Origin: an uncultured Bacteroides sp.
GTDB lineage: Bacteria; Bacteroidota; Bacteroidia; Bacteroidales; JACABE01
Direction: 5' to 3'
NCBI GenBank assembly: GCA_964496885.1
Contig: CAZCBG010000003.1
Span: forward strand, 16,952-80,951
DNA length: 64,000 nt
Each line of letters begins with the position of its first letter. The stretch's first letter is position 1. Below the pieces are notes generated by a model, which worked only from the letters and a program-made list of their open reading frames with translations, ran no database searches and was not told where the DNA came from. The translations under genes were made by a program, and so were the position numbers. Shown one piece after another: positions 6,591 to 50,573 of this stretch.

Positions 6591-6627
6591 AAATCAAGGT
6601 TTTATTGAAATATTCTAAAAATTTATG

Positions 6628-6635
6628 CAAAATTA
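6628..6635 (-). promoter_or_regulatory. Bacteroidota -7 promoter box TAATTTTG (minus strand) upstream of receptor gene 4191-6590
   Basis: Plus strand reads CAAAATTA, which matches TAnnTTTG on the minus strand, 38 nt before the ATG at 6590. Confidence 0.45.
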
Positions 6636-6880
6636 CAAAAATTAGTGTTAAAAAATAATTAATATAATTAGCTACTAAACAGGTAATTGTAAAATATTTT
6701 ATAAATTTATTTAAAATAAGATAAAAAAAGTTAAAAAAAATTTGGAATTCTTATAAAAAAATGCTTAACATTGCAATACAATTTGAGAAAACCAAAAAAA
6801 ATGCCAGATGTAATTAGTTAAAACTCTATATATCATCCACTTAAAATTATCAACTTTTTATTAATTAAACTTAACTTTCT

Positions 6881-9800
6881 ATGAGAAAAATTACATTTTT
6901 ACTTGTCGCCCTCTTACTGATGGGAATGCAAGTGATTCAAGCACAAAAAGTTATCACAGGAAAGGTAACAGGTGCAGATGACGGAGCCAGTATTCCTGGT
7001 GTTCAGATTGTTGTAAAAGGAACTTTACATGGCACTACCACTGACATAGATGGTAAATACCGTATAACTGTTCCGGAAAAATCAGATGTATTGGTTTTTA
7101 CTTTTGTGGGTTTGAAAAGTCAGGAAGTGAAAATTGGGAACAGAAACATTATTGATGTAGTGATGGCTACAGATATAATGAACCTTGATGCGGTAGTTGT
7201 TACAGCTATTGGTGTGAAAAAACAAGAACGTAATCTTGGGTACTCTGCTACTCAGGTAAATGCTGATGAAATCATGAAATCTCGTGACAGAAGCCCGCTT
7301 AATGCATTGCAAGGAAAAATTGCAGGGGTGAATATTTCAACCGCTTCTTCCAGTCCGGGTGCTTCTACAAGAGTTATTTCAAGAGGTTTCTCTTCATTAA
7401 CAGGAAGCAATCAGGCTTTATACGTTGTTGATGGAGTACCTATCAATAATTCAGCTATCGGTAGTACAAGTTTGAATGGTGGTACCGACTTTGGAAACAG
7501 AGGGAATGATATAAATCCTGATGATATTGAAAGTATTTCCTTCTTAAAAGGTTCTTCTGCAACCATTCTTTATGGATCAAGAGCTGCTAATGGCGTAATT
7601 GTTATTACAACTAAAAAAGGAAAAGATCTCGTTAGAGGCGTTAAGAAAAAAGGAGCTGACATTACATTTACAACAACTTTTTTTGGTGAGACTCCTTTAC
7701 GTTTACCTACATTTCAAAATGAATTCGGTGAAGGTTTTAATGGTAAAGCTGATGTAATCGAAAATACTAGCTGGGGTCCAAAATTTGATGCAGTAGCTGT
7801 GCCTAGGGTATGGGGCCATGTTGTAAACAATCAACAACAAATTAAACCTTATGTTGCGCTTCCTAATAATGTTAGAGACTTCTTTGATGTTGGAACTACA
7901 TTTGAAAATTCAATTTCAATTGCAAATTCAAATGATAAGTCAAGTTATTTCTTTTCGTATTCTAATATAAATTCAGATGGAATTTTTCCTACCAATGCAG
8001 ATAGTTATAAAAGAAACACACTTTCATTGAGAGGTACTGCCAAATTAGACAATAATTTTACTAGTTCAGGTTCTATTTCATATGTAAAAAAACAAAGTAA
8101 ATTTGTACCTACCGGACAGGATCAATCTGTTTATGATAATATCATGCAGACTCCAAGAGATATTAGTATTGTAGATCAGTCCGATTATAAGAGTAAATGG
8201 TATAATTTAGACAATTATTACAATGGTTATGCCGCCAATCCTTATTATGTATTGAATGAACATGGAAACGATTTTAACGAAGACCGCGTTTTTGGAAATA
8301 TTGGACTGGATTATAAGTTTAATGATTGGATGAATGCTTCATGGAAAGTGGGTACTGATGTAGCCAATTCTCAGCTAAAAGAATGGCGCGCCATAACTGA
8401 CTATGTTAGAAATAATTATAGTGATGATCCAGGAACTGTTATTGAACAAACCTATTTTAACCGTGAATTTAACAGTGACCTTATTTTAAACTTCAACCGC
8501 AGTTTGAATCAGGATATTGAGTTCAGCGGATTGGTTGGTTGGAATGTTAACCAAAGAAATTCTAAAACCTTATCAACACAAGTAATTGGATTAAATATTC
8601 CTTATTTTTACAATTTATCCAATAGCTCATCCACTCCTTCTGTATCAGAAGCAACTATGATGAGAAGACTTTATGGTGTTTACATGAGTGCAGACTTTAA
8701 CTATAAAAAATATTTAAACTTACAGATCAATGCCAGAAACGATTGGTCATCTACTTTGCCTTCAGCAAACCGTTCTTTCTTTTATCCCGGAGCTAATGTT
8801 TCTTTTGTATTTACAGAGTTTTATCCTGAAATTACAAACATCATTCCTTTTGGAAAAATCAGAATGGGTTTAGCTCAGGTTGGTAATGATGCTAATCCTT
8901 ATCTTATTTTCAACTCATTTACACAGGCTAATTATGCTGATGGTTATCGTGGTTTAGATTGGCCATTGGGTGGAATTAATGCTTTAACTGTTGGAAACAC
9001 TATTGGTAACCCAAGTTTAAAACCAGAAATTACAACTGAATTTGAAATCGGAACCGATTTGCGTTTTTTGAACAATCGATTAGGGGTTGATTTTACTTTT
9101 TACAATAAAATCACTACCGATTTAATCTACCCTGTGCCTTTAGCCTACTCAAGTGGATATCAATACCAAACGATGAACTTAGGTAAAATTTCAAACCGTG
9201 GTATTGAAGTTTTAGTAAAAGGTACTCCTTTAAAGAATGCTGATTTCAAATGGGAAATTTCCGTTAATTATTCTAAAAACACCAACAAACTTGAAGAATT
9301 AAATGCAAGCCTTACAAAAGTTGACTTAGGCGGAACGAGTCGATTGGGTTTTGTAGCTGTTCCAGGACAACCCTTAGGTATGTTTGAAGGAGCTGTCGCA
9401 TTAACTGATGGCAACGGTCATATTGTTGTTGATGGTAGCGGTTTACCAGTTGCAGATCCTGTTAACCAGATACTCGGAAGCTCGCAATATGATTGGATGG
9501 CTGGTATTTCTAACAACCTCACTTACAAAAACTGGGCTTTATCTTTTTCATTTGATATTCGCCAGGGTGGTTTAATGTATTCACGTACCAAAGAAATGAT
9601 GTACTTTGCAGGAACAGCTCCTGAAACAACTTATAATGATCGTCAACCTTTCATTATTCCTAATTCAGTTCAGGCTATTTATGATGCAAATGGTGCCATT
9701 ACAGGTTATACCGAAAATACAACTGCTATTTCTCACCAATCAGCCACTTTGTATCAATATTATGATCAAACCAGAGGGGCAGGAAATTTTGCCCGTGAGT

Positions 9801-37692: not shown

Positions 37693-38718
37693 ATGAATGA
37701 AAATTTAGATGCCAGCGGAGAACAACTCAATTCAGCGGAGAAAGAATATGAAAGAGCCTTGCGGCCTTCATTTTTTGATAGTTTTGCCGGACAATTTCAG
37801 GTAGTCGAAAATTTAAAAATTTTCGTAGAAGCAGCCAAGCAAAGGGGGGAAGCACTCGATCATGTTTTATTACATGGACCTCCGGGATTGGGTAAAACTA
37901 CGCTCTCCTATATTATTGCCAACGAGCTGAATGTTAACATTAAGATTACTTCAGGTCCTGTGCTTGATAAGCCGGGTGAATTAGCTGGTCTTTTGACCAA
38001 TCTTGAAGAAAACGATGTGTTGTTTATCGATGAAATTCATCGTTTATCACCTGTAGTGGAAGAATATCTCTATTCAGCCATGGAAGATTATAAGATTGAC
38101 ATCATGATAGAATCAGGGCCCAATGCAAGAAGTGTGCAGATTGCGCTGAACCCTTTTACATTGATCGGTGCCACAACACGTTCAGGACTGTTAACAGCTC
38201 CTTTACGTTCACGTTTTGGCATCAATTCACGTTTATCGTATTATGATGCGGTAGTGCTTGAAAAAATCATTACCCGTTCTGCAGATATTTTGAAAATAGG
38301 CATCGTAAAAGAAGCAGCCGGCGAAATTGCCCGTCGTAGCCGGGGAACCCCCCGTATTGCCAATCTACTTTTGCGCCGTGTCCGCGACTTTGCACAAATC
38401 AAAGGAAACGGGAATATAGATTTACCCATTGTTCAATATGCCCTCAATGCCTTGAATGTTGATAAAAACGGGCTCGATGAAATGGACAACCGGATATTAT
38501 CGACCATCATCGATAAATTCAAAGGAGGACCTGTTGGATTAACGACAATAGCAACTGCTGTTGGTGAAGATTCCGGTACCATAGAGGAAGTATATGAACC
38601 CTTCCTGATTATGGAAGGCTATATGATGCGCACTCCTCGGGGTCGGGAAGTTACCGAAATGGCCTATAAACATTTGGGAAGAATTAAACTCAACAAACAA
38701 AAGGATTTATTTGAATAA
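37693..38718 (+). CDS. ruvB: Holliday junction branch migration DNA helicase RuvB
   Basis: 341 aa with the motifs [40 protein letters not shown] and [17 protein letters not shown]-like [17 protein letters not shown]. Confidence 0.97.
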
Positions 38719-38816: not shown

Positions 38817-40004
38817 TTATTCTTTAATTACAATATTATAATCCAACCAAAAGGCTTTGTTTTGCATCATTTTCTGATCGTAAATATTGTTTGAATTCTC
38901 CATTCTGGGAAGCTTTCTTACCAAACTTTCTCCATTTTCAACTTCTCCAATATTTTTATATTCTGTAAAAAATTTTCCTACGATATGAGGTTTATGCTGT
39001 TCATAGTAGAAAAATCCATCCCCAAACTCATATTTTAAGTAAGATAATATCATTTTATTTTCATTATCAGATTTGTAAATAACTAAAATATCTGAATTTA
39101 GGTGAATATAATAATCTTTACTGTTTGTTTGAACCGGAATTGGAAAATCTTCAGCTTTGTATAAGATATGAATTTTGAATAATTTATGATCCACACTACT
39201 CAAATATACTTCACCATAAACTACTTCTTCTTTTGAGTTTTTAGGGGAGATTTTTATTTCTAAAATATTTGTTTTTAAGGTACTGTCATAATAGCTCGTT
39301 TTTAAAGTATAATTATAATTTTTGGGATCTGAAAAATATTCGCTTTTATAGCGGCAAAAATTTCTTTCAAGCATCCATTTTAAATAATTCCCTTCTGGAG
39401 TAGGTACTTTCAATAAGCTATCCCTGTTCTTTTGAATTCCTAAAATATAAATATTTTCAAGAATATTGTCCAGTAAATTAGCATGTAATCTATCATAGCC
39501 CGGATCTTCAATAATAAGAGCACTATTAACTGTTCGGGTATGCCATTTTTTTATTGGATCATAATTATTAATTTGTTCGAAGTACGAACCTTTATAAAAA
39601 CGTTTTCCCGTTTGAAAGTTTGTTTTAATTTTTTTAAAAGCATCTGCTAGCATTTCATAAGCTGAAATGCCTGAAGTTATTATCTCAACTGGATTTAAGT
39701 TGTAAACCACAGGATCCATGTGTATATTATTAGCATTAATTGTATCCAATTTTTTCAACAAAAATGCTTTTCGATAATAACCGATACTTGAAATCCAGAT
39801 TGAATCATTTAGAGGATCATTTTTGATATAAAGGATAAACTTCCCATCAATATCGCTGATGGCACCCAAATATTTATTCACGTACACATTTGCATAAGGG
39901 ATGGGCGCTAGTGTTTTTGTATCAATAAGATTTCCCTGTACAATTCTTCCTTTTGCGAATAAAGTTATAAGTAGAAAATATAAAACAAGGAGAAGATTTT
40001 TCAT
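38817..40004 (-). CDS. carboxypeptidase-like regulatory domain-containing secreted protein, function unknown
   Basis: 395 aa with a signal peptide. The N-terminal GNLIDTKTLAPIPYANVYVNKYLGAISDIDGKFILYI is CarboxypepD_reg-like; the rest is unassigned. I found neither a promoter box nor a hairpin in the 70-nt gap to the upstream gene. Confidence 0.6.
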   Translation of the reverse strand: MKNLLLVLYFLLITLFAKGRIVQGNLIDTKTLAPIPYANVYVNKYLGAISDIDGKFILYIKNDPLNDSIWISSIGYYRKAFLLKKLDTINANNIHMDPVVYNLNPVEIITSGISAYEMLADAFKKIKTNFQTGKRFYKGSYFEQINNYDPIKKWHTRTVNSALIIEDPGYDRLHANLLDNILENIYILGIQKNRDSLLKVPTPEGNYLKWMLERNFCRYKSEYFSDPKNYNYTLKTSYYDSTLKTNILEIKISPKNSKEEVVYGEVYLSSVDHKLFKIHILYKAEDFPIPVQTNSKDYYIHLNSDILVIYKSDNENKMILSYLKYEFGDGFFYYEQHKPHIVGKFFTEYKNIGEVENGESLVRKLPRMENSNNIYDQKMMQNKAFWLDYNIVIKE

Positions 40005-40074: not shown

Positions 40075-40410
40075 TTATTCTTCCAATATCCTGAAGGAAT
40101 CGCTGTCTTCGATTCTTTCCAACTCACTTTCTTCGGGCAAATGAAGATAAGCCTTTATGGCAGGGTCGAAATCGGCGATGGTTTCCACTTCAAAAACCTT
40201 GCTGTTTTTTTCGTCTTCCACATATTCTTCGGTTTCTGTACCTGCCAAAAACCTCCAGCCACTGTCGTTTTCAGCATCTTCCTGAATTTCTTCACGGTAC
40301 ATATAACCGACTTTTTTACCATCTAAGGTAATTAAATTTGAAACCAGACACAAACCCATGGAGGTTTCTTCTGCAGGATTTGTATTGTGTTTTATGTGTT
40401 GTTTTTTCAT
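40075..40410 (-). CDS. DUF2185 (Imm33-like) domain protein
   Basis: 111 aa. The core GLCLVSNLITLDGKKVGYMYREEIQEDAENDSGWRFLAGTETEEYVEDEKNSKVFEVETIADFDPAI matches my memory of the DUF2185/Imm33 consensus (MYRE...DSGW.F..G.E..EY). Its ATG overlaps the radical SAM stop (TAATG at 40412-40408). Confidence 0.6.
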   Translation of the reverse strand: MKKQHIKHNTNPAEETSMGLCLVSNLITLDGKKVGYMYREEIQEDAENDSGWRFLAGTETEEYVEDEKNSKVFEVETIADFDPAIKAYLHLPEESELERIEDSDSFRILEE

Positions 40411-42269
40411 TATTTTGTTTTTTTATTTATAAATTTTGAAATGTAATTCTTTGGAATTGAAGTAGGCGGAATTTTAAATTCAAACCAATCTTGCAAGGAA
40501 TATTCCAATCCGTTATCGTGCATAAAATTATACAAGGCTTTGGTCAGCCCCATGCCATATTTCTCATGATTACAGCCTGTTTTATCAATATGATTACAGC
40601 CGTTTTGAGCAAATACATTTTCAGGATAAGGAAGGCGTTCTACTCCATATTTTTCAGGATCCATGCCAACCGGACTGTGAACCGTCATGGCAAAGCGATG
40701 CCAGAAGGCTGATTGTATCAGCTTGTGATGAAACAATTGACGAACAACTTCTAATGCATCTATCGTTTCCTGAGCAGTTTCGGTCGGGAAACCATACATC
40801 AGATAAGCATGTATCATGATGCCAGCGTTTTGAAAAGCAGCTGTTACTGTTGCTACTTGCTCTATGCTTACGCCCTTTTCCATTTTTTCCAATAAGCGGT
40901 CGGAAGCAACTTCCAGACCACCTGAAACTGCAATGCAACCCGACTCAGCAAGTAATTCGCATAACTCTGATTTAAATGCCATTTCAAATCGGATATTTGT
41001 CCACCAACTAAGGCTGAGTTTGCGCTGGATAATCTCTTCAGCTAATTTTCTCAACAATATAGGAGATGCCGCTTCATCTACAAAATGAAAGCCCCGTTGC
41101 CCTGTTTGTTTGATAATAGCTTCTATACGGTCGCATAAAATGCCTGCAGATGCTGGCATGTATCGTTTGATATAATCCAAAGAAACATCGCAAAACGAAC
41201 AACGGTGCCAGTAACATCCATGAGCCAGTGCTATTTTGTTCCAACGTCCATTGCTCCACAAATTGTGCATGGGATTTGTAGTTTCGCTCACAGAAATATA
41301 GTCCTGCAAAGGCAAACCTTCGTAAACGGGTATTCCAATGTCTTTGTGAGCAAAATCTTTCTCAAGGGCATTGTTGATGTATGTAACTTTAGCATGTTCT
41401 AATTTAAAAGTTCTTGCTAAATTATCTTCACCCTTTATAATATGATTCAGTAATTTTAATAAAGGTAGTTCCCCATCGTCAAGGCAAACATAATCTATCA
41501 ATTCAAATAGCTTTGGTTCATTAAGTTGACGCAATTCTGTATTAACAAACCCTCCTCCAATGACAACCGGAATATGCGGATATTTTTTCTTGATAAATTC
41601 TGCTGATTTTAAAGCCATTAACAAATTCCCAGGAAAAGGAATTGTAAAGCCAATAAGTTTAGGCTTATATTTGATGATGGATTGATCCAATAAGTTATAC
41701 ATGACGCCAGTAATGAGTGACTCAAGCTTAAGCTCTTCTTGAATGCATTGATAGTTGATGGAATTTAAGCCGATTTGTTCTGCATAACGACTGAATCCAA
41801 AGCGGCTGTCAATACATTCGGTAATAAAATCGCCAATATCCTCTATGAATAGCGTAGCCAGAAATTTTGCTTTATCTTGTATGCCATCTGAACCAAAATG
41901 CCATTCTAAGTCCTGTTGAATGTTGAATCTTCCGGCTTCCGGTAAAACTCCATTGTTGATGGAATAAGCAAAACTTGTGTCTTTACCTTGCAAAAAAGCA
42001 ATAACTGCATCAATATGCCTGATGTAGTCATCTTTTGATGCTATTATTTTTTTTGAATTCTCTGAACACTTGGCGTCATCTATAGAATCAAACATCATTT
42101 GCAATCCATTGGCAGAAAGCAATTCTAAAATGCAAGAGATGCTTAAATCAAGTTGAGCTACCTTAAACCCTTGTTCTTGCAAAAAACCCTTTAAACCGGC
42201 TGTTGCAGGATAGGGTGTATTCAACTGAATAAAAGGTGGAATAATAAGTAATAAATCGTTTTGAGTCAC
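40410..42269 (-). CDS. B12-binding-domain (class B-like) radical SAM enzyme, noncanonical CX4CX2C motif
   Basis: The track ORF (to 42446) starts at a TTG and its first 59 residues are low-complexity. I prefer the GTG at 42269 (giving MTQNDLLLIIPPF), because a promoter box lies at 42292-42299 inside the extension. The Rossmann-like N-terminus is LIGFTIPFPG...VVIGGGF. The cluster motif C-YWHR-C-SF-C was verified codon by codon at 41216-41190. Confidence 0.75.
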   Translation of the reverse strand: MTQNDLLLIIPPFIQLNTPYPATAGLKGFLQEQGFKVAQLDLSISCILELLSANGLQMMFDSIDDAKCSENSKKIIASKDDYIRHIDAVIAFLQGKDTSFAYSINNGVLPEAGRFNIQQDLEWHFGSDGIQDKAKFLATLFIEDIGDFITECIDSRFGFSRYAEQIGLNSINYQCIQEELKLESLITGVMYNLLDQSIIKYKPKLIGFTIPFPGNLLMALKSAEFIKKKYPHIPVVIGGGFVNTELRQLNEPKLFELIDYVCLDDGELPLLKLLNHIIKGEDNLARTFKLEHAKVTYINNALEKDFAHKDIGIPVYEGLPLQDYISVSETTNPMHNLWSNGRWNKIALAHGCYWHRCSFCDVSLDYIKRYMPASAGILCDRIEAIIKQTGQRGFHFVDEAASPILLRKLAEEIIQRKLSLSWWTNIRFEMAFKSELCELLAESGCIAVSGGLEVASDRLLEKMEKGVSIEQVATVTAAFQNAGIMIHAYLMYGFPTETAQETIDALEVVRQLFHHKLIQSAFWHRFAMTVHSPVGMDPEKYGVERLPYPENVFAQNGCNHIDKTGCNHEKYGMGLTKALYNFMHDNGLEYSLQDWFEFKIPPTSIPKNYISKFINKKTK

Positions 42270-42291
42270 AATTTTAAATAATTGTTTTTTA

Positions 42292-42299
42292 CAAAAGTA
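42292..42299 (-). promoter_or_regulatory. -7 promoter box TACTTTTG (minus strand) for the radical SAM operon
   Basis: Plus strand reads CAAAAGTA, 23 nt upstream of the in-frame GTG at 42269 and inside the longest-ORF extension. Confidence 0.45.
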
Positions 42300-42418
42300 G
42301 GATAAATTTCTATTCTGCTGCTTACTTAGGAATCTTTTATTTAGAAGATAGTTGAGCAAATTACGAAGTGGTTTAAGATTTATTAGTAAAAGGAGGTTAA
42401 GAAGCGACATTTTTTTAT

Positions 42419-42426
42419 TACTTTTG
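42419..42426 (+). promoter_or_regulatory. possible -7 promoter box TACTTTTG for the Pls-like synthetase gene
   Basis: Matches TAnnTTTG but lies 108 nt before the ATG at 42534, which is a long leader. Tentative. Confidence 0.3.
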
Positions 42427-42533
42427 TATAAGATTCGATAAAACAAGTATTATTTTAAAAAAGCTGAATTAGAATACTTTAATAAATTAAAAAATATTCT
42501 ATTCTTGAAAAATATCAATCTAAAAAACACAGC

Positions 42534-45500
42534 ATGCAAGAAGAACCCTTTGAAGAAAAAGTAATCAACATAAATTTTAGTGCGTGGTCGGGACTTTCAT
42601 CTTATAATAATTTGAAGGAAAAGCTGCTTTTGCATGAGCTTTTTGAACAATCTGCAGATCGTTTTCCTGATAATATAGCAATAGAAGATGCAACTATAAA
42701 GCTCAGCTATGCTGAAGTTGAGCATCAGGCAAATCAGCTGGCACATTACCTCATCGAAAAGGGAGTTGGTGCTGATCAGAAAGTTGCTATTATGCTCCCT
42801 CGGATTTCATATGTTTATATTGCAATGCTGGGGGTTTTAAAGGCAGGAGGGGCTTATATTCCGCTTGATCCAGAAATACCCGGTGAAAGAGTTGACTTTA
42901 TAATGGAAGATTCCGGAGCATTGCTTCTTATTTCTTCTGATGAAATTTTAAACCGCATAGGTTCTACTCTTACAACTAGAAAGATATTAAATGTTGACCA
43001 AGAAAATAAGTTGCTTGAAAACTTCCCTGAAAGTCGAATGATAAATTCTAAGGTAAGTAGCAATCATCTCTGTTATATTATTTACACTTCAGGTACAAGT
43101 GGCCAGCCTAAAGGCGTTTTGCTGGAACATCGAAATGTAATTACTTATGTTCATTCTGCTCAGGAAATATATCCAATAACAGCTTCTGACAGAGCCCTTC
43201 AGGGTTTTTCCGTATCTTTTGATGCATCAGTAGAAGAAATTTGGCTTCCTTTTTCTGTAGGAGCTTCTGTTGTTGTAGGTAAATTTGACATCATGCGATC
43301 GGGTGACCGTTTTTCAGAAATTCTTTATAAGTTAAACATTACTTTTTTATCCTGTGCACCCACATTACTATCTATGGTTGATGAGGATATCCCAAGCTTA
43401 AAGATATTGATATTCGGTGGGGAAGTTTGTCCATCTGATCTAGCGCATCGATGGTGCCGTGAAGGTCGGATGGTATATAATACCTATGGACCAACCGAAG
43501 CAGCTGTTATTGCAACCTACCAGGTTTTAGAACCCAATCAGGCTGTAACTATTGGACGTCCAATGCCTCAATATATTGTAATGATACTTGATGAGGCATT
43601 AAATTCAGTAAATATTGGCCAGGAAGGAGAAATCTATATTGGAGGAGAATGTGTAGCCCGCGGCTATCTCAATCAGGCAGAACTTACAACAGAAAAATTT
43701 ATTGAAACCGACAAATTTACAACTTATCCTTTGCGTTTGTATAGAACAGGTGATCTTGCCAAATATGCAGAAAATGGAGAAATAATATATGTAGGAAGAG
43801 CCGATACCCAAGTGAAAGTTCGTGGTTTCAGGGTTGAACTGTCAGAAATTGAAGGACTTATTCTGAAAACTAATAATATAAAAGCAGCAGTTGTGGCACT
43901 CGATAAAGCTACACAGCAACTTGCAGCTTATATCGTTGTACGTGAAGGAGAAACTATTGATCGTGAACAAATGATTACTTTGCTTCGCGCTAAACTACCT
44001 TATTACATGATACCTTCAACACTTGACGAGGTGATTTCTTTGCCTATGACCTCAAGTTCTAAAATTGACAGAAGTAAGTTACCAAAGCCTAAAACACCAT
44101 TGGCTTCTTCTTCACATAAGGAATATATATTACCAACATCTACTCTTGAGAAAGTACTTGTAGGTAAGTTAAAGGATCATTTCAGGCTTATCGATATTTC
44201 AATGGACGACAACTTCTTTACTGATCTCGGGGGGCATTCTCTTTTAGCAGCTATTGTTGTTTCTGATCTAAGAAAAGACGTTTTGTTCAAAAATATGTCA
44301 GTCATTGATATCTACAACAATCCAGTATTAAAAGATTTAGCAAATGAACTGGAATCTCAGTTAAACTTAAAACACACTAAAAAAAAAGAGCCCCGCGACT
44401 TTTACAAACCATCAAGCCTTAGTTATTATAGTTGTTGGTTCAGTCAGGGTGTATCCATGATATTTTTATCCTTCTTATTTGGCTTAGAATGGTTGGGACC
44501 GTTTTTTGTTTATTCTTATTACTATCATGCCGATTATGGGGTAGTAGATTCTTTGTTAATCATGCTTCTGACTTACTTTTTGCTGTTGCCAACATTTTCG
44601 ATATTTGCTATCATCTTTAAATGGCTGGTAATTGGCCGGATTAAACCTGGTAAGTATAAATTGTGGAGCTTATATTATTTCCGTTTCTGGATAGTAGATA
44701 AGGTTATAGGTATTTCCCCTGCCAGTTATTTTACGGGAACTCCTATTATTACCAATTTCTATAGATTGTTAGGGGCAAAAATTGGGAAAAATACATACAT
44801 CAACTCACATACTTCGTCTGTATTCGACTTACTGACAATCGGAAATAACGTTAGTATATGTACAGATACTCATTTTAAAGGCTTTGAGATCAAAGACGGT
44901 TACCTTCATATTGGATCTATTGAAATTGCTGATGAATGTTTTGTTGGAACCCGTTGTTGTATTTCAGAAAATACTAAAATGGAGCGTAATTCTTCAATGG
45001 AAGATCTCTCTTTACTGCCTTCAGGAAGTATTATTCCTGCAAACGAGAATTGGCAAGGTTCTCCTGCTGAGAAAATAGGCATTAATCCAAAAGTAGAAAC
45101 TATAAAATTGTGGAAAGAAACTCATTTTACGCTTTACCTCCTGGGCGTATTTATTTTTCCTCTCATAACTATGCTGGCTTATTTTCCTGGAATGATGCTC
45201 ATTACACATGTCGACTATTCCAGTGATGACTATGAATTTTTAATGTTAACCATTGTTGTTGCAGTTTCGTTCGTACTTATATTATCTCTCATTATTGCTT
45301 TGTTAAAATGGCTGATGTTGGGAAATATAAAGGAGGGAAGGTATCCTGTAGCAAGCCTTTTTTACTACAGGAAATGGTTTTTTGATCAATTGATGAAATT
45401 GAGTCTGCAGGTTATTGGTACACTTTATACAACACTCTACCTTCAGTATTGGTTTAAACTTTTAGGCGTAAAAATTGGTAAGCGTTCCGAAATTTCAACG

Positions 45501-46502
45501 GTTGAATTTATTTCACCCGACTTACTGGTGGCTGGTGATGAGTGTTTTTTGGCTGATTCTGTATCTGTTGGCGCATCTCATGTAAGAAATGGATATATTT
45601 CCATAGCAAAAACATATATCGGAAACCGTACTTTCGTAGGAAACAGTGCAGTTATTAGTCCGGGAACAGTCTTAGGGAATGGAGTGTTGGTTGGTGTACT
45701 TTCGAAGATGAAGGACGAACAACTTCCTGCTCCTGATGGAACTTCATGGTTTGGTTCACCTGCAGTTTACTTACCCAATCGTGATATCAATCAGGATTTT
45801 TCAATTGGCCGGACTTATCAACCAAGTCGAACGCTTTTTGCATTGCGCTATTTCATAGAATTTTTTAGAGTTACACTTCCGGCTACCCTTTTTATTATGA
45901 TGGCTTCTATGATAACCAATATTACCAGTTATTTACAAGTTGATTTTGATCTCTTGCCATTGATGTGTATTTTCCCTTTACTTTATATCGGGGCTAGTTT
46001 TGTAGGATTTATTGTGCTGGCCCTATTTAAATGGATTGTGATTGGTCGTTACCGTCCTTGCAATAAACCTCTTTGGAGTGGCTTTGTATGGAGAAGCGAA
46101 CTTGTTACAGGATTGTACGAAAACTTTGGAGTACTTTTCTTTATGAACGTGCTAACAGGTACCCCTTTTATTAAATTCCCACTCTGGCTACTGGGCAGTA
46201 AAATAGGGAAAAGAACTTGTATTTATACTACACAAATTACAGAATTTGATCTTGTAAAAATTGGCGATTATTCTGCATTAAACGATAACTGCACAATACA
46301 AACTCATCTTTTTGAAGACAGGGTGATGAAGATGTCGTATGTTGATATTGGAAAAGAGTGTACTGTAGGGGGAATGTCTGTTGTCCTTTACGATTCTAAG
46401 ATGGAAGATGGAGCTAGACTTGACAATTTATCTGTATTAATGAAGGGTGAAACGCTTTCTGCAATGAGTACTTTTATAGGTGCACCTGCAAAACCAGCAT
46501 AA
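42534..46502 (+). CDS. Pls-type (epsilon-poly-L-lysine-synthetase-like) single-module membrane NRPS: A domain, T domain, then three [2 TM + beta-helix] modules
   Basis: 1322 aa. All adenylation core motifs A1-A10 are present in order, followed by the PCP motif FFTDLGGHSLLA. There is no HHxxxDG or TE motif. The C-terminal ~690 aa is a threefold repeat of two hydrophobic helices plus a hexapeptide-repeat-like segment. Details are in the findings. Confidence 0.85.
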   Translation: MQEEPFEEKVININFSAWSGLSSYNNLKEKLLLHELFEQSADRFPDNIAIEDATIKLSYAEVEHQANQLAHYLIEKGVGADQKVAIMLPRISYVYIAMLGVLKAGGAYIPLDPEIPGERVDFIMEDSGALLLISSDEILNRIGSTLTTRKILNVDQENKLLENFPESRMINSKVSSNHLCYIIYTSGTSGQPKGVLLEHRNVITYVHSAQEIYPITASDRALQGFSVSFDASVEEIWLPFSVGASVVVGKFDIMRSGDRFSEILYKLNITFLSCAPTLLSMVDEDIPSLKILIFGGEVCPSDLAHRWCREGRMVYNTYGPTEAAVIATYQVLEPNQAVTIGRPMPQYIVMILDEALNSVNIGQEGEIYIGGECVARGYLNQAELTTEKFIETDKFTTYPLRLYRTGDLAKYAENGEIIYVGRADTQVKVRGFRVELSEIEGLILKTNNIKAAVVALDKATQQLAAYIVVREGETIDREQMITLLRAKLPYYMIPSTLDEVISLPMTSSSKIDRSKLPKPKTPLASSSHKEYILPTSTLEKVLVGKLKDHFRLIDISMDDNFFTDLGGHSLLAAIVVSDLRKDVLFKNMSVIDIYNNPVLKDLANELESQLNLKHTKKKEPRDFYKPSSLSYYSCWFSQGVSMIFLSFLFGLEWLGPFFVYSYYYHADYGVVDSLLIMLLTYFLLLPTFSIFAIIFKWLVIGRIKPGKYKLWSLYYFRFWIVDKVIGISPASYFTGTPIITNFYRLLGAKIGKNTYINSHTSSVFDLLTIGNNVSICTDTHFKGFEIKDGYLHIGSIEIADECFVGTRCCISENTKMERNSSMEDLSLLPSGSIIPANENWQGSPAEKIGINPKVETIKLWKETHFTLYLLGVFIFPLITMLAYFPGMMLITHVDYSSDDYEFLMLTIVVAVSFVLILSLIIALLKWLMLGNIKEGRYPVASLFYYRKWFFDQLMKLSLQVIGTLYTTLYLQYWFKLLGVKIGKRSEISTVEFISPDLLVAGDECFLADSVSVGASHVRNGYISIAKTYIGNRTFVGNSAVISPGTVLGNGVLVGVLSKMKDEQLPAPDGTSWFGSPAVYLPNRDINQDFSIGRTYQPSRTLFALRYFIEFFRVTLPATLFIMMASMITNITSYLQVDFDLLPLMCIFPLLYIGASFVGFIVLALFKWIVIGRYRPCNKPLWSGFVWRSELVTGLYENFGVLFFMNVLTGTPFIKFPLWLLGSKIGKRTCIYTTQITEFDLVKIGDYSALNDNCTIQTHLFEDRVMKMSYVDIGKECTVGGMSVVLYDSKMEDGARLDNLSVLMKGETLSAMSTFIGAPAKPA
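42630..44093 (+). other. adenylation domain of the Pls-like synthetase
   Basis: Motifs in order: LSYAEVE, LKAGGAYIPLD, YIIYTSGTSGQPKGV, FDASVEE, NTYGPTE, GEIYIGGECVARGYL, YRTGDLAKY, GRADTQVKVRGFRVELSEIE, LPYYMIPS, SSSKIDRSKL. Confidence 0.9.
44238..44240 (+). other. predicted phosphopantetheine-attachment serine (Ser569) of the carrier domain
   Basis: The TCT codon lies within GAT CTC GGG GGG CAT TCT (DLGGHS). Frame checked against the ATG at 42534. Confidence 0.8.
44430..46499 (+). repeat. threefold internal protein repeat (aa ~633-850, ~862-1085, ~1100-1322) of the Pls-like synthetase
   Basis: Each copy has two TM helices, a junction motif and a beta-helix-like segment. The junction motifs are FKWLVIGRIKPGKYKLWS (nt 44616), LKWLMLGNIKEGRYPVAS (nt 45303) and FKWIVIGRYRPCNKPLWS (nt 46026). 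The following segments contain LLGAKIGKNTYI, LLGVKIGKRSEI and LLGSKIGKRTCI. Confidence 0.85.
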
Positions 46503-46661: not shown

Positions 46662-47366
46662 ATGCATTTATTTTATACACCCGATATTAAATCTTCTTCG
46701 TATGCCCTTGATAAAGAAGAATCCACACATTGTGTAAAGGTATTACGTTTGAAAGAAGGCAGCCTAATCCATTTAACTGATGGAAAGGGAAATCTGTATA
46801 AAGCACAATTGCTGACTTCAGATCCCAAGGAATGCTTAGTCGAAATCAAAGAAACGATACCTGAATTCGGCAAAAGAGGATTTTATTTACATATTGCCAT
46901 TGCACCTACTAAAAACATCGACCGTTTTGAATGGTTTCTTGAAAAAGCAACCGAAATAGGCATTGATGAAATTACACCCCTTTTCTGTGAACATTCCGAA
47001 AGGAACATCATTAAACCAGAACGGCTACAAAAAATTATCACTTCAGCCTTAAAGCAATCTTTAAAAACTTATCACCCGGTTTTGAATGAAGCTGTTAAGT
47101 TCAATCATTTCATTCAGACTTTTTTTGATGGTAAAAAATACATTGCACATTGCGAAGAAAACAAAAAAACATCCTTGCAATCAGCTTGTCAAAAAGGCGA
47201 AAATGCTTTGATATTAATAGGCCCTGAAGGTGATTTTAGTAATCCGGAAATTATAAATGCCATTGAAAACAATTTTTTACCCATTAGTTTGGGAAATTCA
47301 CGCTTACGAACCGAAACTGCTGGTATTGTGGCCTGTCATACTATTAATTTATTGAATGAATTATGA
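46662..47366 (+). CDS. rsmE: 16S rRNA (uracil1498-N3)-methyltransferase
   Basis: 234 aa with the motifs MHLFYTP, HCVKVLRLKEG and the C-terminal SPOUT knot LIGPEGDFS...LGNSRLRTETA. Confidence 0.9.
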   Translation: MHLFYTPDIKSSSYALDKEESTHCVKVLRLKEGSLIHLTDGKGNLYKAQLLTSDPKECLVEIKETIPEFGKRGFYLHIAIAPTKNIDRFEWFLEKATEIGIDEITPLFCEHSERNIIKPERLQKIITSALKQSLKTYHPVLNEAVKFNHFIQTFFDGKKYIAHCEENKKTSLQSACQKGENALILIGPEGDFSNPEIINAIENNFLPISLGNSRLRTETAGIVACHTINLLNEL

Positions 47367-48016
47367 TTAAAAGATTTTTTTTATACCTGATATTAATTGC
47401 ATTTTTAAGCTCATTTACACCACCAACCTATCAAATTGCATTGTTAAAATACAATGGAGGTGGAGATTGGTATGCCAATCCTACTTCATTGACAAATCTT
47501 ATTCAATATGCAAATCAATACCTCGGTACCAATCTAAATCCGGATTATGCTACTGTTGATGTGGGAAGTACAGAATTGTACAATTATCCCTTTGTTCACA
47601 TGACCGGACATGGAAATGTTGTTTTTTCTGACAGAGATGCAGAAAATTTAAGAAACTATCTGAAAGGTGGAGGTTTTTTACATATCGACGATAATTATGG
47701 CATGGATAAGTTTATACGGCCTCAAATGAAAAAAGTATTTCCTGAATTGGAATTTGTAGAATTACCTTTTAGCCATCCTATTTTTCATCAGAAATATGAT
47801 TTTCCGAATGGTCTGCCAAAGATTCATGAACACGATGGCAAACGCCCTCAGGGATTTGGATTATTCTTCAACGGCCGACTGGTTTGTTTTTATAGCTATG
47901 AATGTGATTTGGGTGATGGATGGGAAGATCAGGATGTTCATAAAGATTCAGAAGCAACACGTACCAAAGCTTTAAGGATGGGTGTGAACCTATTACAGTT
48001 CGTTTTTAATCAATAG
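47363..48016 (+). CDS. DUF4159 domain-containing protein
   Basis: 217 aa. LLKYNGGGDWYANPTSL...YPFVHMTGHGNVVFSDRDAENLRNYLKGGGFLHIDDNYGMDKF...LPKIHEHDGKRPQGFGLF is the DUF4159 pattern. Its start overlaps the rsmE stop in ATGA. Confidence 0.8.
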   Translation: MIKRFFLYLILIAFLSSFTPPTYQIALLKYNGGGDWYANPTSLTNLIQYANQYLGTNLNPDYATVDVGSTELYNYPFVHMTGHGNVVFSDRDAENLRNYLKGGGFLHIDDNYGMDKFIRPQMKKVFPELEFVELPFSHPIFHQKYDFPNGLPKIHEHDGKRPQGFGLFFNGRLVCFYSYECDLGDGWEDQDVHKDSEATRTKALRMGVNLLQFVFNQ

Positions 48017-48371: not shown

Positions 48372-50408
48372 ATGAAAAAATTAATCCTAATATTATTTTC
48401 TTTATCAATTTTAAGTTCATGTAGTAAAGATACAGCAACTCCAACATCTTCTGATGTTTTAGTTACAATGGACAACATGGTTGTTAATCCAAGTTTTGGT
48501 TTTAAAACTTCTCAAAATATTAGTGTAGAGCTTAAAGCTCAGGATAATATGGGTACAGCTATGCAATACATCCGTTTTAATGTATTTTCAAATATGAAAG
48601 AAAACGATGGAGCAATTATTGCATCAGGTGCAACAGATATCAATGGTGATTTGAAATTAAGTATTCCTATACCCAGCTATTACGATTCTATCGTAGTTGC
48701 TACTGATTTTATAGGTTTTGTAAATCAAATAAAGCTTCCAATTATTGGAGGAAAAGTGTCCTACTTATTTGGGGGAAATCATCCAGCTAAAAAATCAGCA
48801 GAGGAATTAATTCCTAAAGCAACAGCTGCCTATATCAAATTTTTAGGAACTTACAATAGCCAAGGTGTCCCTAATTATTTAGTTTCCAACGATGTGGTAG
48901 AAGCCAGTTTGTTGACTGATATTAATGCCTGGTTACCAGAATATAAATCTGTTCCAGTTAATCATCCTGGATATTTAGCACAAACTAATGTTACCAATGT
49001 TATTTTAAATCAAATGGCAGATGTTTGGGTTACTTTTGTTCACGAAGGTGCAGGTTATATGAATGTCTTAGGTTTTTATACTTACGATAAAAATACCCCA
49101 ATTACGAATGTAAATCAAATAGATTCTATCCGGATTATTTTTCCAAATGCTTCGTTATCAGGAAGCGGAGGTGGATTAAATTCAGGGAATAGGGTTAAAC
49201 TCGGAACTTTTCCTGCCAACACAGGTATAGGTTGGGTATTGTTTTCAAATGGATGGACAGGAAGCAGTGTAAATGCAAATGCTACAAAATATTATTCTGA
49301 CCCTATACTTAATCCAGAAACCGATGTGGCCAACCGCCAACACACTGTTTTGCTTCACGATGCAGGAAGAGGATTGTATTTATGTGGTTTTGAAGATATG
49401 GGTCGTAATCCAAATATCGGAGCTGATAACGATTTTAATGACATTCTCTTTTATGTAAAAACAAATCCAGTTCAAGCAATTGCTCAAAACAATGTTTATC
49501 AGGCAAGTGGTTCTGCTGTTGATACCGATCATGATGGAGTTTCTGATTTATTTGACGATTATCCAACAGATCCATTAAGAGCTTTTAATAATTATTTTCC
49601 TTCAAAAACACAGTTTGGCACATTGGCTTTCGAAGATCTCTGGCCTTCAAAAGGAGACTATGATTTTAATGATGTGGTGGTTGATTATCGTTTTAATCCA
49701 ATAACCAATGCATCTAATCAGGTTGTAAATATTCAGGCAAAGTTTGTTGTTAAAGCCACTGGAGCTGGTTTCTTAAATGGTTTTGGTTTCCAGATTCCTT
49801 CACTTACTTCAGCCTCAGTGCAGAATGTGACTGGAACTAATTTAACCGAAACAGGTTTTATCAGTACTTTAGCAAGTGGTGTCGAAGCAAATCAATCTAA
49901 AGCAACAGTAATAGTGTTTGATAATGCCTGGAAGAATTTTTCAAATGCTTCAGGAAGTAATCCAAGTGGTTTCTCTGGTATCAATACTTTAATTGGTGGG
50001 AGAACTGGTATTCCTGATACTTTAAATGTAAATCTGACTTTGGTACAACCCATAAGTTCTGCAACATTAGGTTTGCCTCCTTATAATCCATTTATTATAG
50101 CAAATAAGACCAGGGGGAAAGAAATTCATCTTGCTGATTATCCTCCTACCGATTTGGTTGATCATACATTGTTTGGAACATCAAATGATAACAGTAATCC
50201 TTCAGCCGGAAGATATTATAAAACTGCAAACAATCTACCATGGGGTATTAATATTGCAGAAAAATTCAATTATCCGATTGAAAAAGCTAAAATTATTGAC
50301 GGACATTTAAAATTTGCCGCCTGGGCACAAAGTAGTGGTGTTCTTTATAAGGACTGGTATAAACCAAATGCTGGGTATAGAAATTCAGTTTATATATATC
50401 CAAACTAA
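48372..50408 (+). CDS. LruC-domain lipoprotein with N-terminal beta-sandwich-like and DUF4114-like domains
   Basis: 678 aa with lipobox LSSC. The DUF4114-like segment is VTFVHEGAGYMNVLGFYTY...GFEDMGRNPNIGADNDFNDILFYV. It is followed by the Ca-binding-like DTDHDGVSDLFDDYPTDP and the LruC signature LAFEDLWPSKGDYDFNDVVVDY...YNPFIIANKTRGKEIHLADYPPT...YYKTANNLPWGI. Confidence 0.8.
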   Translation: MKKLILILFSLSILSSCSKDTATPTSSDVLVTMDNMVVNPSFGFKTSQNISVELKAQDNMGTAMQYIRFNVFSNMKENDGAIIASGATDINGDLKLSIPIPSYYDSIVVATDFIGFVNQIKLPIIGGKVSYLFGGNHPAKKSAEELIPKATAAYIKFLGTYNSQGVPNYLVSNDVVEASLLTDINAWLPEYKSVPVNHPGYLAQTNVTNVILNQMADVWVTFVHEGAGYMNVLGFYTYDKNTPITNVNQIDSIRIIFPNASLSGSGGGLNSGNRVKLGTFPANTGIGWVLFSNGWTGSSVNANATKYYSDPILNPETDVANRQHTVLLHDAGRGLYLCGFEDMGRNPNIGADNDFNDILFYVKTNPVQAIAQNNVYQASGSAVDTDHDGVSDLFDDYPTDPLRAFNNYFPSKTQFGTLAFEDLWPSKGDYDFNDVVVDYRFNPITNASNQVVNIQAKFVVKATGAGFLNGFGFQIPSLTSASVQNVTGTNLTETGFISTLASGVEANQSKATVIVFDNAWKNFSNASGSNPSGFSGINTLIGGRTGIPDTLNVNLTLVQPISSATLGLPPYNPFIIANKTRGKEIHLADYPPTDLVDHTLFGTSNDNSNPSAGRYYKTANNLPWGINIAEKFNYPIEKAKIIDGHLKFAAWAQSSGVLYKDWYKPNAGYRNSVYIYPN

Positions 50409-50487: not shown

Positions 50488-50491
50488 TAAG

Positions 50492-50573
50492 TGCGGATGA
50501 AGGGACTCGAACCCCCACGTCGCAAGACACCAGATCCTAAGTCTGGCGCGGCTACCAATTACGCCACATCCGC
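50492..50573 (-). tRNA. tRNA-Leu (anticodon UAG)
   Basis: The reverse complement is GCGGATGTGGCGTAATTGGTAGCCGCGCCAGACTTAGGATCTGGTGTCTTGCGACGTGGGGGTTCGAGTCCCTTCATCCGCA. The acceptor stem is GCGGATG/CATCCGC and the anticodon stem CCAGA/TCTGG carries the loop CT-TAG-GA. A long variable arm and a TTCGAGT T-loop are present. No CCA is encoded. Confidence 0.85.

Follow-up and report, generated by a model that had tools for sequence, protein, structure and literature searches.

A probable poly-lysine-type NRPS of the Pls/PosA family encoded in a metagenome-assembled Bacteroidales genome

The gene at positions 42534..46502 of the plus strand of the window, the whole stretch of 64,000 nucleotides analysed here, encodes a genuine and intact member of the Pls/PosA family, whose members are membrane enzymes known to polymerise a single amino acid, here most likely lysine, to a cationic product. 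With a probability of roughly 0.7 it is a functional single-module membrane NRPS of this family, of the poly-lysine type, in a metagenome-assembled Bacteroidales bacterium. Epsilon-poly-L-lysine is an industrial food preservative, and new cationic polymers are being sought among the enzymes of the Pls/PosA family. Should the Bacteroidales enzyme prove active, it would add a new phylum and anoxic habitats to those with proven producers, and expression work would gain an AT-rich gene that stands on its own. It would also raise the question what use a diderm anaerobe has for a membrane-active polycation.

Family assignment and domain architecture

Open reading frame calling and translation yielded a complete pls-like gene of 1322 codons plus stop, and no open reading frame of at least 80 amino acids was found on the opposite strand within 42534-46502. 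Residues 638–1319 of the 1322 amino acids protein matched the NCBIfam model TIGR02353 ("Pls/PosA family NRPS") with 608 bits, well above the curated cutoff of 423.1 bits, from model position 3 to 695 of 695. Three separate matches to this model had been expected in the preliminary description; a single full-length match spanning the entire C-terminal region was obtained instead. The Pfam matches to AMP-binding and PP-binding, which had also been predicted, were both detected, together with one to Hexapep, and every testable defining feature of the family was found in the protein. The assignment is routine and its kind is not new, as the exact protein (on ENA contig ERZ4223863 NODE_31) and near-identical copies are already present in public collections. 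The mates of the protein in its 90% identity cluster, which come from Bacteroidales metagenome-assembled genomes, are named "Pls/PosA family NRPS" by NCBI, and as a genome annotation the gene is ordinary since the NCBI pipeline gives near-identical proteins the same name. The family identity proposed earlier was right but its novelty was overstated, having been preceded by this naming and by a 2023 paper on PosA which surveyed the family across phyla, Bacteroidetes included (PMC10522769). A literature search found no characterised Bacteroidota member, in line with the caution expressed at the outset about studied homologues in this phylum.

The adenylation domain (residues 33–516, 42630..44081) was recognised by TIGR01733 with 398 bits (cutoff 317 bits; model positions 1–409 of 409), by Pfam AMP-binding with 273 bits, and by AMP-binding_C. 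It carries the motifs A1 to A10 in the order originally described: A1 to A3 can be read in the translation as LSYAEVEH, LKAGGAYIPLDP, and LCYIIYTSGTSGQPKG, and A4 to A10 were located too. The carrier (thiolation) domain (residues 553–604, 44190..44345) passed the Pfam PP-binding threshold narrowly, with 22.0 against 20.8 bits. Its motif FFTDLGGHSLLA begins at residue 561 and places the serine for phosphopantetheine attachment, Ser569, at nucleotides 44238-44240, exactly where it had first been located. This serine sits in the sequence DLGGHSLL and is unchanged in 77 of 77 homologues. While the adenylation and carrier domains are typical of canonical NRPS with the order C-A-T-TE such as GrsA and LgrA, the protein differs from these in having neither a condensation domain nor a thioesterase, with the making of peptide bonds attributed to the beta-helix domain. 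A motif scan of the 1322 residues confirmed that HH dipeptides (and therefore HHxxxDG) and GxSxG are missing, and Pfam gave no match to Condensation or Thioesterase anywhere in the protein.

The top PDB sequence matches of the protein are LgrA, McyA, TycA, and GrsA, and the adenylation domain alone scores higher against GrsA (320 bits) and 5u89 (356 bits) than against Streptomyces albulus Pls, from which it is distant (PDB 7wew; 242 bits, E value 1e-70, the adenylation domain alone being compared). Such scores would fit an ordinary NRPS fragment, in which an A-T loading module had become fused to an unrelated membrane acetyltransferase through chance or an assembly error. This explanation is hardly credible, as thousands of proteins of about 1290–1330 amino acids share the full-length architecture, which is also seen on independent contigs, and the Pls-type specificity code is conserved together with it. 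That this architecture is found on many independent contigs refutes a chance fusion or misassembly. The order of domains in the Pls/PosA family member described here is that of S. albulus Pls (BAG68864.1), where A and T are likewise followed by three repeats of two transmembrane helices and a soluble domain, C and TE domains are likewise lacking, and TIGR02353 is likewise matched. The length of S. albulus Pls, about 1319 amino acids, is close to 1322. No Streptomyces-named entry occurred among the 50% cluster representatives of similar length. Unlike S. albulus, the host is a low-GC, diderm Bacteroidales bacterium, and the product is predicted only.

Substrate code and predicted product

The specificity code was read from an alignment to GrsA-PheA and consists of D230, A231, E234, S273, I293, G295, T317, V325, I326, and K510 (DAESIGTVIK). 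It is identical in nine of ten positions to the lysine code of S. albulus Pls (DAESIGTVVK), the exception being position 9 with isoleucine in place of valine. Among 77 homologues DAESIGTVIK occurs in 69 and DAESIGTVVK in three, so that 72 of 77 carry the Lys-type code DAESIGTV[IV]K, down to 39% identity; four others have valine at position 5. A published list (PMC10522769, Suppl. Table 2) gives DAESIGTVVK for S. albulus Pls, a maker of poly-lysine, and has DAESIGTVIK itself with Lys as the predicted substrate. The aspartate at position 1 and the glutamate at position 3, to which both amines of a diamino acid bind in this family (PMC10522769), are present as D230 and E234, and they are placed in the pocket so as to hold such a substrate by its alpha-amine and its side-chain amine. 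As the code agrees with that of Pls in nine of ten residues, an epsilon-poly-L-lysine-type polymer is therefore the most likely product judged from the sequence. The choice between epsilon and alpha linkage and the chain length are not readable from a sequence.

A rather unlikely alternative is that the protein belongs to the same family and makes something else, that is a polymer of ornithine, DAB, DAP, or beta-lysine, very short oligomers, or lysine attached to a non-lysine acceptor such as an envelope component. Small changes of the code do lead to different polymers in members of the family, and software mispredicted the substrate of PosA, the delta-poly-L-ornithine synthetase of Acinetobacter baumannii and, like the protein described here, a family member from a Gram-negative host: the code-based prediction first gave lysine, the enzyme used ornithine, and the difference hinged on methionine at position 2 (PMC10522769). 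In addition, the Bacteroidia clade's C-terminal domain is less than 47% identical to all others, and no characterised member of this clade was found in the literature search. Against this stands position 2 itself, which is alanine in all lysine enzymes, methionine for ornithine, phenylalanine for DAP or DAB, and glycine for beta-lysine (PMC10522769). It is the Pls-type alanine in the window protein, unlike the methionine in the PosA code DMEHNGTVSK. The match to Pls in nine of ten code residues and the end-to-end fit of the C-terminal domain to the family model argue in the same direction, namely for a polymer of the poly-lysine type.

C-terminal polymerisation region and proposed mechanism

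The Pls/PosA C-terminal polymerisation domain comprises residues 638–1319 (44445..46490). The preliminary description had divided the last ~690 residues into three tandem units of two hydrophobic helices and a soluble segment each, and this was borne out by pairwise alignment of the units (Z = 20–32 over shuffles). Transmembrane hairpin 1 (44415..44630) contains the helices 628–665 and 670–699 with a short acidic loop between them and is followed by the soluble part of unit 1, C1 (residues 700–861, 44631..45116), with a KW..G motif, helices, and a left-handed beta-helix. Hairpin 2 (helices 862–896 and 902–928, 45117..45317) precedes C2 (residues 929–1098, 45318..45827), which includes the Pfam Hexapep match at residues 1027–1054, and hairpin 3 (helices 1099–1134 and 1140–1169, 45828..46040) precedes C3 (residues 1170–1322, 46041..46499), C2 and C3 again forming left-handed beta-helices. 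The hairpins were defined by hydropathy, AlphaFold2 helices, and charge distribution, the soluble parts by internal alignment, AlphaFold2, and Foldseek. The AlphaFold2 model of the C-terminal fragment (pLDDT 84.2, pTM 0.87) was built from an alignment of sequences 68–96% identical to that fragment, which gives weak support to the packing between its domains. It yielded the anticipated three beta-helices, each after one of three helix pairs, and six long helices of 27–38 residues each. The proposed six transmembrane helices in three pairs are thus predicted by hydropathy, model, and loop charge taken together; the hydropathy scan with a threshold of 1.6 found five of the six, residues 1099–1134 (helix 1 of hairpin 3) staying below it and being model-based. 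For PosA a C-terminal fold of six bent helices and three beta-helices in pseudo-three-fold packing has been predicted (PMC10522769, section 13), an architecture which matches the model obtained here.

A search of the PDB gave no solved structure of a Pls/PosA C-terminal region, only weak matches to hexapeptide proteins. Foldseek related the model to acetyltransferases of the hexapeptide type and to gamma-carbonic anhydrases. All three soluble units have the fold of hexapeptide acyltransferases such as maltose and galactoside O-acetyltransferases and streptogramin acetyltransferase, with E values of 1e-4 to 1e-5 and a target-normalised TM-score of up to 0.59. These enzymes act as trimers with active sites at the interfaces, where a catalytic histidine is found. 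The Bacteroidales protein differs from them in that three beta-helices are contained in one membrane-tethered chain, in that the acyl donor would by analogy be an aminoacyl-S-carrier domain and not acyl-CoA, and in that an invariant histidine occurs in unit 3 only. This residue, H1258, lies in the motif THLFEDRVMKM (residues 1257–1267, 46302..46334), which is the same in 77 of 77 homologues at 39–93% identity, across phyla, whereas the histidines that units 1 and 2 have at about the corresponding positions are variable among these homologues. H1258 is a candidate catalytic base, and because only unit 3 has a family-invariant histidine, the pseudo-trimer probably contains one catalytic centre.

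According to a mechanism summary for the S. albulus enzyme, Pls makes an epsilon-linked L-lysine homopolymer on free, non-covalently held acceptor chains (PMC9205021). By analogy to Pls and PosA, the adenylation domain would adenylate L-lysine and load it as a thioester onto Ser569 of the T domain, and the pseudo-trimeric beta-helix domain would pass the lysyl group on to a free lysine, at its epsilon-amine. Repeated transfer to the growing, non-covalently held chain would then give an epsilon-poly-L-lysine-type isopeptide polymer with no need for a C or TE domain. The hairpin loops are acidic and their flanks are basic, which agrees with a topology suggested by the positive-inside rule, where every catalytic domain would be cytoplasmic and the short acidic loops of the three hairpins outside. 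We propose that the three hairpins could make an exit path for the cationic chain.

Distribution, selection, and genomic neighbourhood

Bacteroidia homologues are 62–93% identical to the window protein, with an average identity of ~65% at the deepest split inside the clade. Homologues occur in many other phyla at 39–46% identity, the Bacteroidia clade being less than 47% identical to all phyla outside it. Members are found in mostly anaerobic, diderm hosts, among them lineages labelled Prevotella, Bacteroidaceae, Muribaculaceae, and Paludibacter. The pls-like gene is under strong purifying selection, with a dN/dS of 0.07 overall, of 0.04–0.07 against five relatives, and of 0.036 for the C-terminal domain against one of the relatives, L035. 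A broader interpretation, doubtful as a whole, would be that the Bacteroidia enzymes form one coherent, old-looking, vertically inherited, and strongly constrained clade with H1258 of unit 3 as the single catalytic centre of its pseudo-trimer, and that a poly-lysine-type polycation is a widespread physiological product of anaerobic Bacteroidia for the envelope, biofilm, or interference competition and not a sporadic antibiotic.

The gene is solitary and lacks conserved partners. Among 38 Bacteroidia loci, in which genes of a peptidase, a transporter, or a PPTase were sought, at most seven had any one gene family in common, and synteny is lineage-specific only. PosA is likewise encoded by a solitary gene with no cotranscribed partners (PMC10522769). 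This solitude, together with the failure of a non-exhaustive search to identify a PPTase nearby, could point to a secondary-metabolite gene that was acquired recently or is in decay, silent or inactive and with no role in the organism. We consider this very unlikely: the frame is intact with all motifs in place, the dN/dS values against the five relatives are low, the GC content of 33–38% resembles that of the flanks, synteny is retained with relatives 79–93% identical, and the clustering of the Bacteroidia sequences broadly matches their taxonomic labels. A horizontal-transfer island was likewise rejected on the grounds of this GC content and of the lack of an integrase among the open reading frames annotated at 34.7–54.9 kb. 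The earlier statement that neither integrase nor tRNA flanks the gene stood for the integrase only, as a tRNA-Leu is located 4 kb downstream (50491-50573). Similarly, rsmE does follow directly downstream but ruvB, described as the upstream neighbour, is 3.8 kb away. In agreement with the initial observation no pld-type gene for a polymer-degrading enzyme adjoins the pls-like gene, unlike in Streptomyces. Rfam gave only tRNA and no regulatory RNA upstream of the gene, and the 5' intergenic region measures 87 bp. Between ruvB and the pls-like gene there are three minus-strand open reading frames, encoding a CarboxypepD_reg-like protein, an Imm33 protein, and a B12-radical-SAM protein, and the latter two were dismissed as parts of the system since the pair adjoins pls only in the lineage of the window itself.

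Domain architecture and predicted substrate

The ORF of 1322 amino acids claimed in the preliminary description at 42534-46502 of the forward strand is real, and no ORF of at least 80 amino acids was found on the opposite strand within it. A search of NCBIfam yielded two matches above cutoff, the amino acid adenylation domain TIGR01733 (398 bits, cutoff 317, residues 58-454) and the terminal domain TIGR02353 (608 bits, cutoff 423, residues 638-1319, model positions 3-695 of 695), the latter titled "Pls/PosA family non-ribosomal peptide synthetase". Pfam matches were obtained for AMP-binding, AMP-binding_C, PP-binding (22.0 bits, threshold 20.8), and Hexapep, but none for Condensation or Thioesterase domains. 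AMP-binding, PP-binding, and TIGR02353 were thus found as had been expected; instead of three anticipated TIGR02353 matches, however, a single one was obtained because the model spans the entire C-terminal region. The carrier motif FFTDLGGHSLLA starts at residue 561 as described, with Ser569 encoded by nucleotides 44238-44240, and neither an HH dipeptide nor a GxSxG motif is present in the protein, again in agreement with the preliminary description.

For assignment of the ten specificity residues the adenylation domain was aligned to GrsA-PheA; the numbering is valid since the GrsA-PheA sequence used returned the published code DAWTIAAICK. The code obtained, DAESIGTVIK, is identical to that of an Acidobacteria homologue with lysine as predicted substrate and closely resembles DAESIGTVVK of the epsilon-poly-L-lysine synthetase Pls from Streptomyces albulus, for which lysine has been determined experimentally (PMC10522769 Supplementary Table 2). 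The same table lists DMEHNGTVSK for ornithine in PosA, the delta-poly-L-ornithine synthetase of Acinetobacter baumannii, DFE... for the enzymes using DAP or DAB, and DGESVSVVNK for a beta-lysine enzyme. Position 2 of the code tunes side-chain length and the glutamate at position 3 holds the side-chain amine (PMC10522769). Of the 120 database proteins closest to the protein, 109 have DAESIGTVIK unchanged. Among 77 full-length homologues taken from genome contigs, the lysine type DAESIGTV[IV]K occurs in 72, at identities as low as 39%, and four further homologues carry valine at position 5. Because of the Pls-like code and its conservation in both sets, lysine is the best-supported predicted substrate. 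Every testable defining feature of the Pls/PosA family, the lysine-type code included, was found, and the protein is a member of this family.

Fold, topology, and candidate catalytic centre of the C-terminal region

The C-terminal region was divided into three units (residues 625-855, 856-1100, and 1101-1322), which align pairwise with local scores 20-32 standard deviations over shuffled controls and so bear out the three tandem copies described before. In a Kyte-Doolittle scan the hydrophobic segments come in pairs, located at about 640-703, 863-933, and 1134-1173. An AlphaFold2 model of residues 625-1322, calculated from an alignment of 76 sequences, yielded a mean pLDDT of 84.2 and a pTM of 0.87. 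Each modelled unit consists of two long helices (628-665/670-699, 862-896/902-928, and 1099-1134/1140-1169), a short strand, two to three helices, and then a beta-helix. The three acetyltransferase-like beta-helices proposed previously are thus present in the model, and Foldseek matches in the PDB were hexapeptide-repeat acetyltransferases and gamma-carbonic anhydrases with E values of 1e-5 to 1e-3. A PDB sequence search with the C-terminal region weakly matched the same kinds of protein and returned no solved Pls-type C-terminal domain. The model agrees with the published AlphaFold description of PosA, in which six bent helices and three five-turn left-handed beta-helices pack in roughly three-fold symmetry (PMC10522769 section 13). 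Each hairpin has a short acidic loop (net charges -2, -4, and -2), and the segments following hairpins 1, 2, and 3 are basic (+5, +2, and +4), so that by the positive-inside rule the adenylation domain, the carrier domain, and all three beta-helices have a predicted cytoplasmic location with the hairpin tips alone facing outward.

Each unit has a histidine (H780, H1016, and H1258) that lies within the corresponding loop of its beta-helix or close to it, and hexapeptide acyltransferases use a catalytic histidine. The stretch THLFEDRVMKM in the unit 3 beta-helix (residues 1257-1267, nucleotides 46302-46334), which includes H1258, is invariant in all 77 homologues from many phyla, whereas H780 is substituted in 30 and H1016 in 52 of them. 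This suggests a functional asymmetry among the three repeats, and by analogy with the acyltransferases the pattern of H1258 is consistent with a pseudo-trimer in which one interface alone holds a catalytic centre. In Pls of S. albulus it has been shown that the adenylation domain adenylates lysine, that the carrier domain carries it, and that the C-terminal tandem domains attach it first to a free lysine and subsequently to the growing chain, which is itself free (PMC9205021). As all structural prerequisites are present, we infer the same mechanism here: lysine would be adenylated by the adenylation domain, loaded on the carrier domain, and coupled by the tandem domains to free lysine and afterwards to the free growing chain.

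Relatives and distribution

The exact protein is already public (ENA ERZ4223863 contig NODE_31, 141.7 kb), and its 90% cluster includes MFZ4413050.1 and MEI6696792.1 ("[Bacteroidota bacterium]"), so that near-identical proteins already bear the Pls/PosA family name. The Pls/PosA family name is also attached to matches from Microbacter margulisiae, Prolixibacteraceae, and Bacteroidales MAGs. In the literature searched, no Bacteroidota member had been studied experimentally; the survey in the PosA paper includes a homologue from Chitinophaga whose code is of the ornithine type (PMC10522769). The protein is a further uncharacterised member of a known, automatically annotated family and not a new type of system.

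More than 575 loci were detected when one genome per species was scanned. Identity to the protein studied here is 93% in the Bacteroidota MAG ELA489, 77-83% in related Bacteroidales and Acetobacteroides MAGs, 62-68% in MAGs labelled Paludibacter, Prevotella, Bacteroidaceae, Muribaculaceae, Dysgonomonas, Parabacteroides, and Prolixibacteraceae, and 39-46% in Planctomycetota, Verrucomicrobiota, Elusimicrobia, Holophagaceae/Geothrix, Myxococcota, Bacillus rhizoplanae, and a Methanosarcinaceae MAG. When the C-terminal domain was searched exhaustively with HMMER, 713 clusters (formed at 50% identity) reached E values of 1e-30 or better; one representative with 73% identity stands for the whole Bacteroidia clade, the next best reaching 46%. 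In a crude average-linkage clustering the Bacteroidia sequences grouped broadly by taxonomic label, with other phyla intermixed. A reading in which anaerobic Bacteroidia make, for a physiological role, a poly-lysine-type polycation of ancient origin and vertical inheritance appears improbable. One locus from the Bacteroidales-labelled MAG fen_957 (L085, 3897-7796) encodes a homologue only about 40% identical, which groups with non-Bacteroidia sequences; either this is a second type gained by horizontal transfer or the contig was mis-binned.

Gene neighbourhood and selection

Downstream of ruvB (37693-38718, +) lie a 395-amino acid CarboxypepD_reg-like ORF (38817-40004, -), an Imm33-domain protein of 111 amino acids (40075-40410, -), and a B12-binding radical SAM protein of 678 amino acids (40410-42446, -). 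The pls-like gene (42534-46502, +) is followed by rsmE (46662-47366, +), a DUF4159 protein (47363-48016, +), a 678-amino acid LruC-domain protein with DUF4114 and DUF4842 (48372-50408, +), and, 4 kb downstream, tRNA-Leu with anticodon TAG (50491-50573, -), the sole Rfam or ARAGORN match across the 64-kb window. This neighbourhood is retained in close relatives; more distant Bacteroidia have unrelated neighbours. In a comparison of 38 Bacteroidia loci, each neighbouring gene family turned up in seven at most; acetyl-CoA synthetase is a neighbour of pls in six. The pls-like gene is therefore a stand-alone unit, as has likewise been reported for posA (PMC10522769). Its GC content (33-38%) is the same as that of the flanks. 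Comparison with the 93% relative gave a dN/dS of 0.07, and for the C-terminal domain the values with five relatives were 0.03-0.04.

An M14 peptidase and an SBF-family transporter are found beside pls in five Prolixibacteraceae-type loci (L004, L011, L013, L030, and L040), the 922-amino acid M14 zinc carboxypeptidase being divergent and upstream and the transporter directly downstream (5120-7888 and 11934-12842 in L004). These two proteins, which are absent from the window, could be partners for trimming or export of the polymer.

The radical SAM/Imm33 pair (40075-42446, -), with the Imm33 gene downstream of the radical SAM gene, is divergent from pls and adjoins it only in the window's own lineage (loci L001/L006, L007, L032, and L035). 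The radical SAM protein is class-B methyltransferase-like, all its NCBIfam matches being far under the cutoffs. The 395-amino acid ORF contains the CarboxypepD_reg-like domain alone, has a low GC content (28%), and is missing in L001, a relative with 83% identity in which ruvB and the Imm33 gene are immediate neighbours; it looks like a lineage-specific insertion. The order of the DUF4159 and LruC-domain genes is conserved in close relatives.
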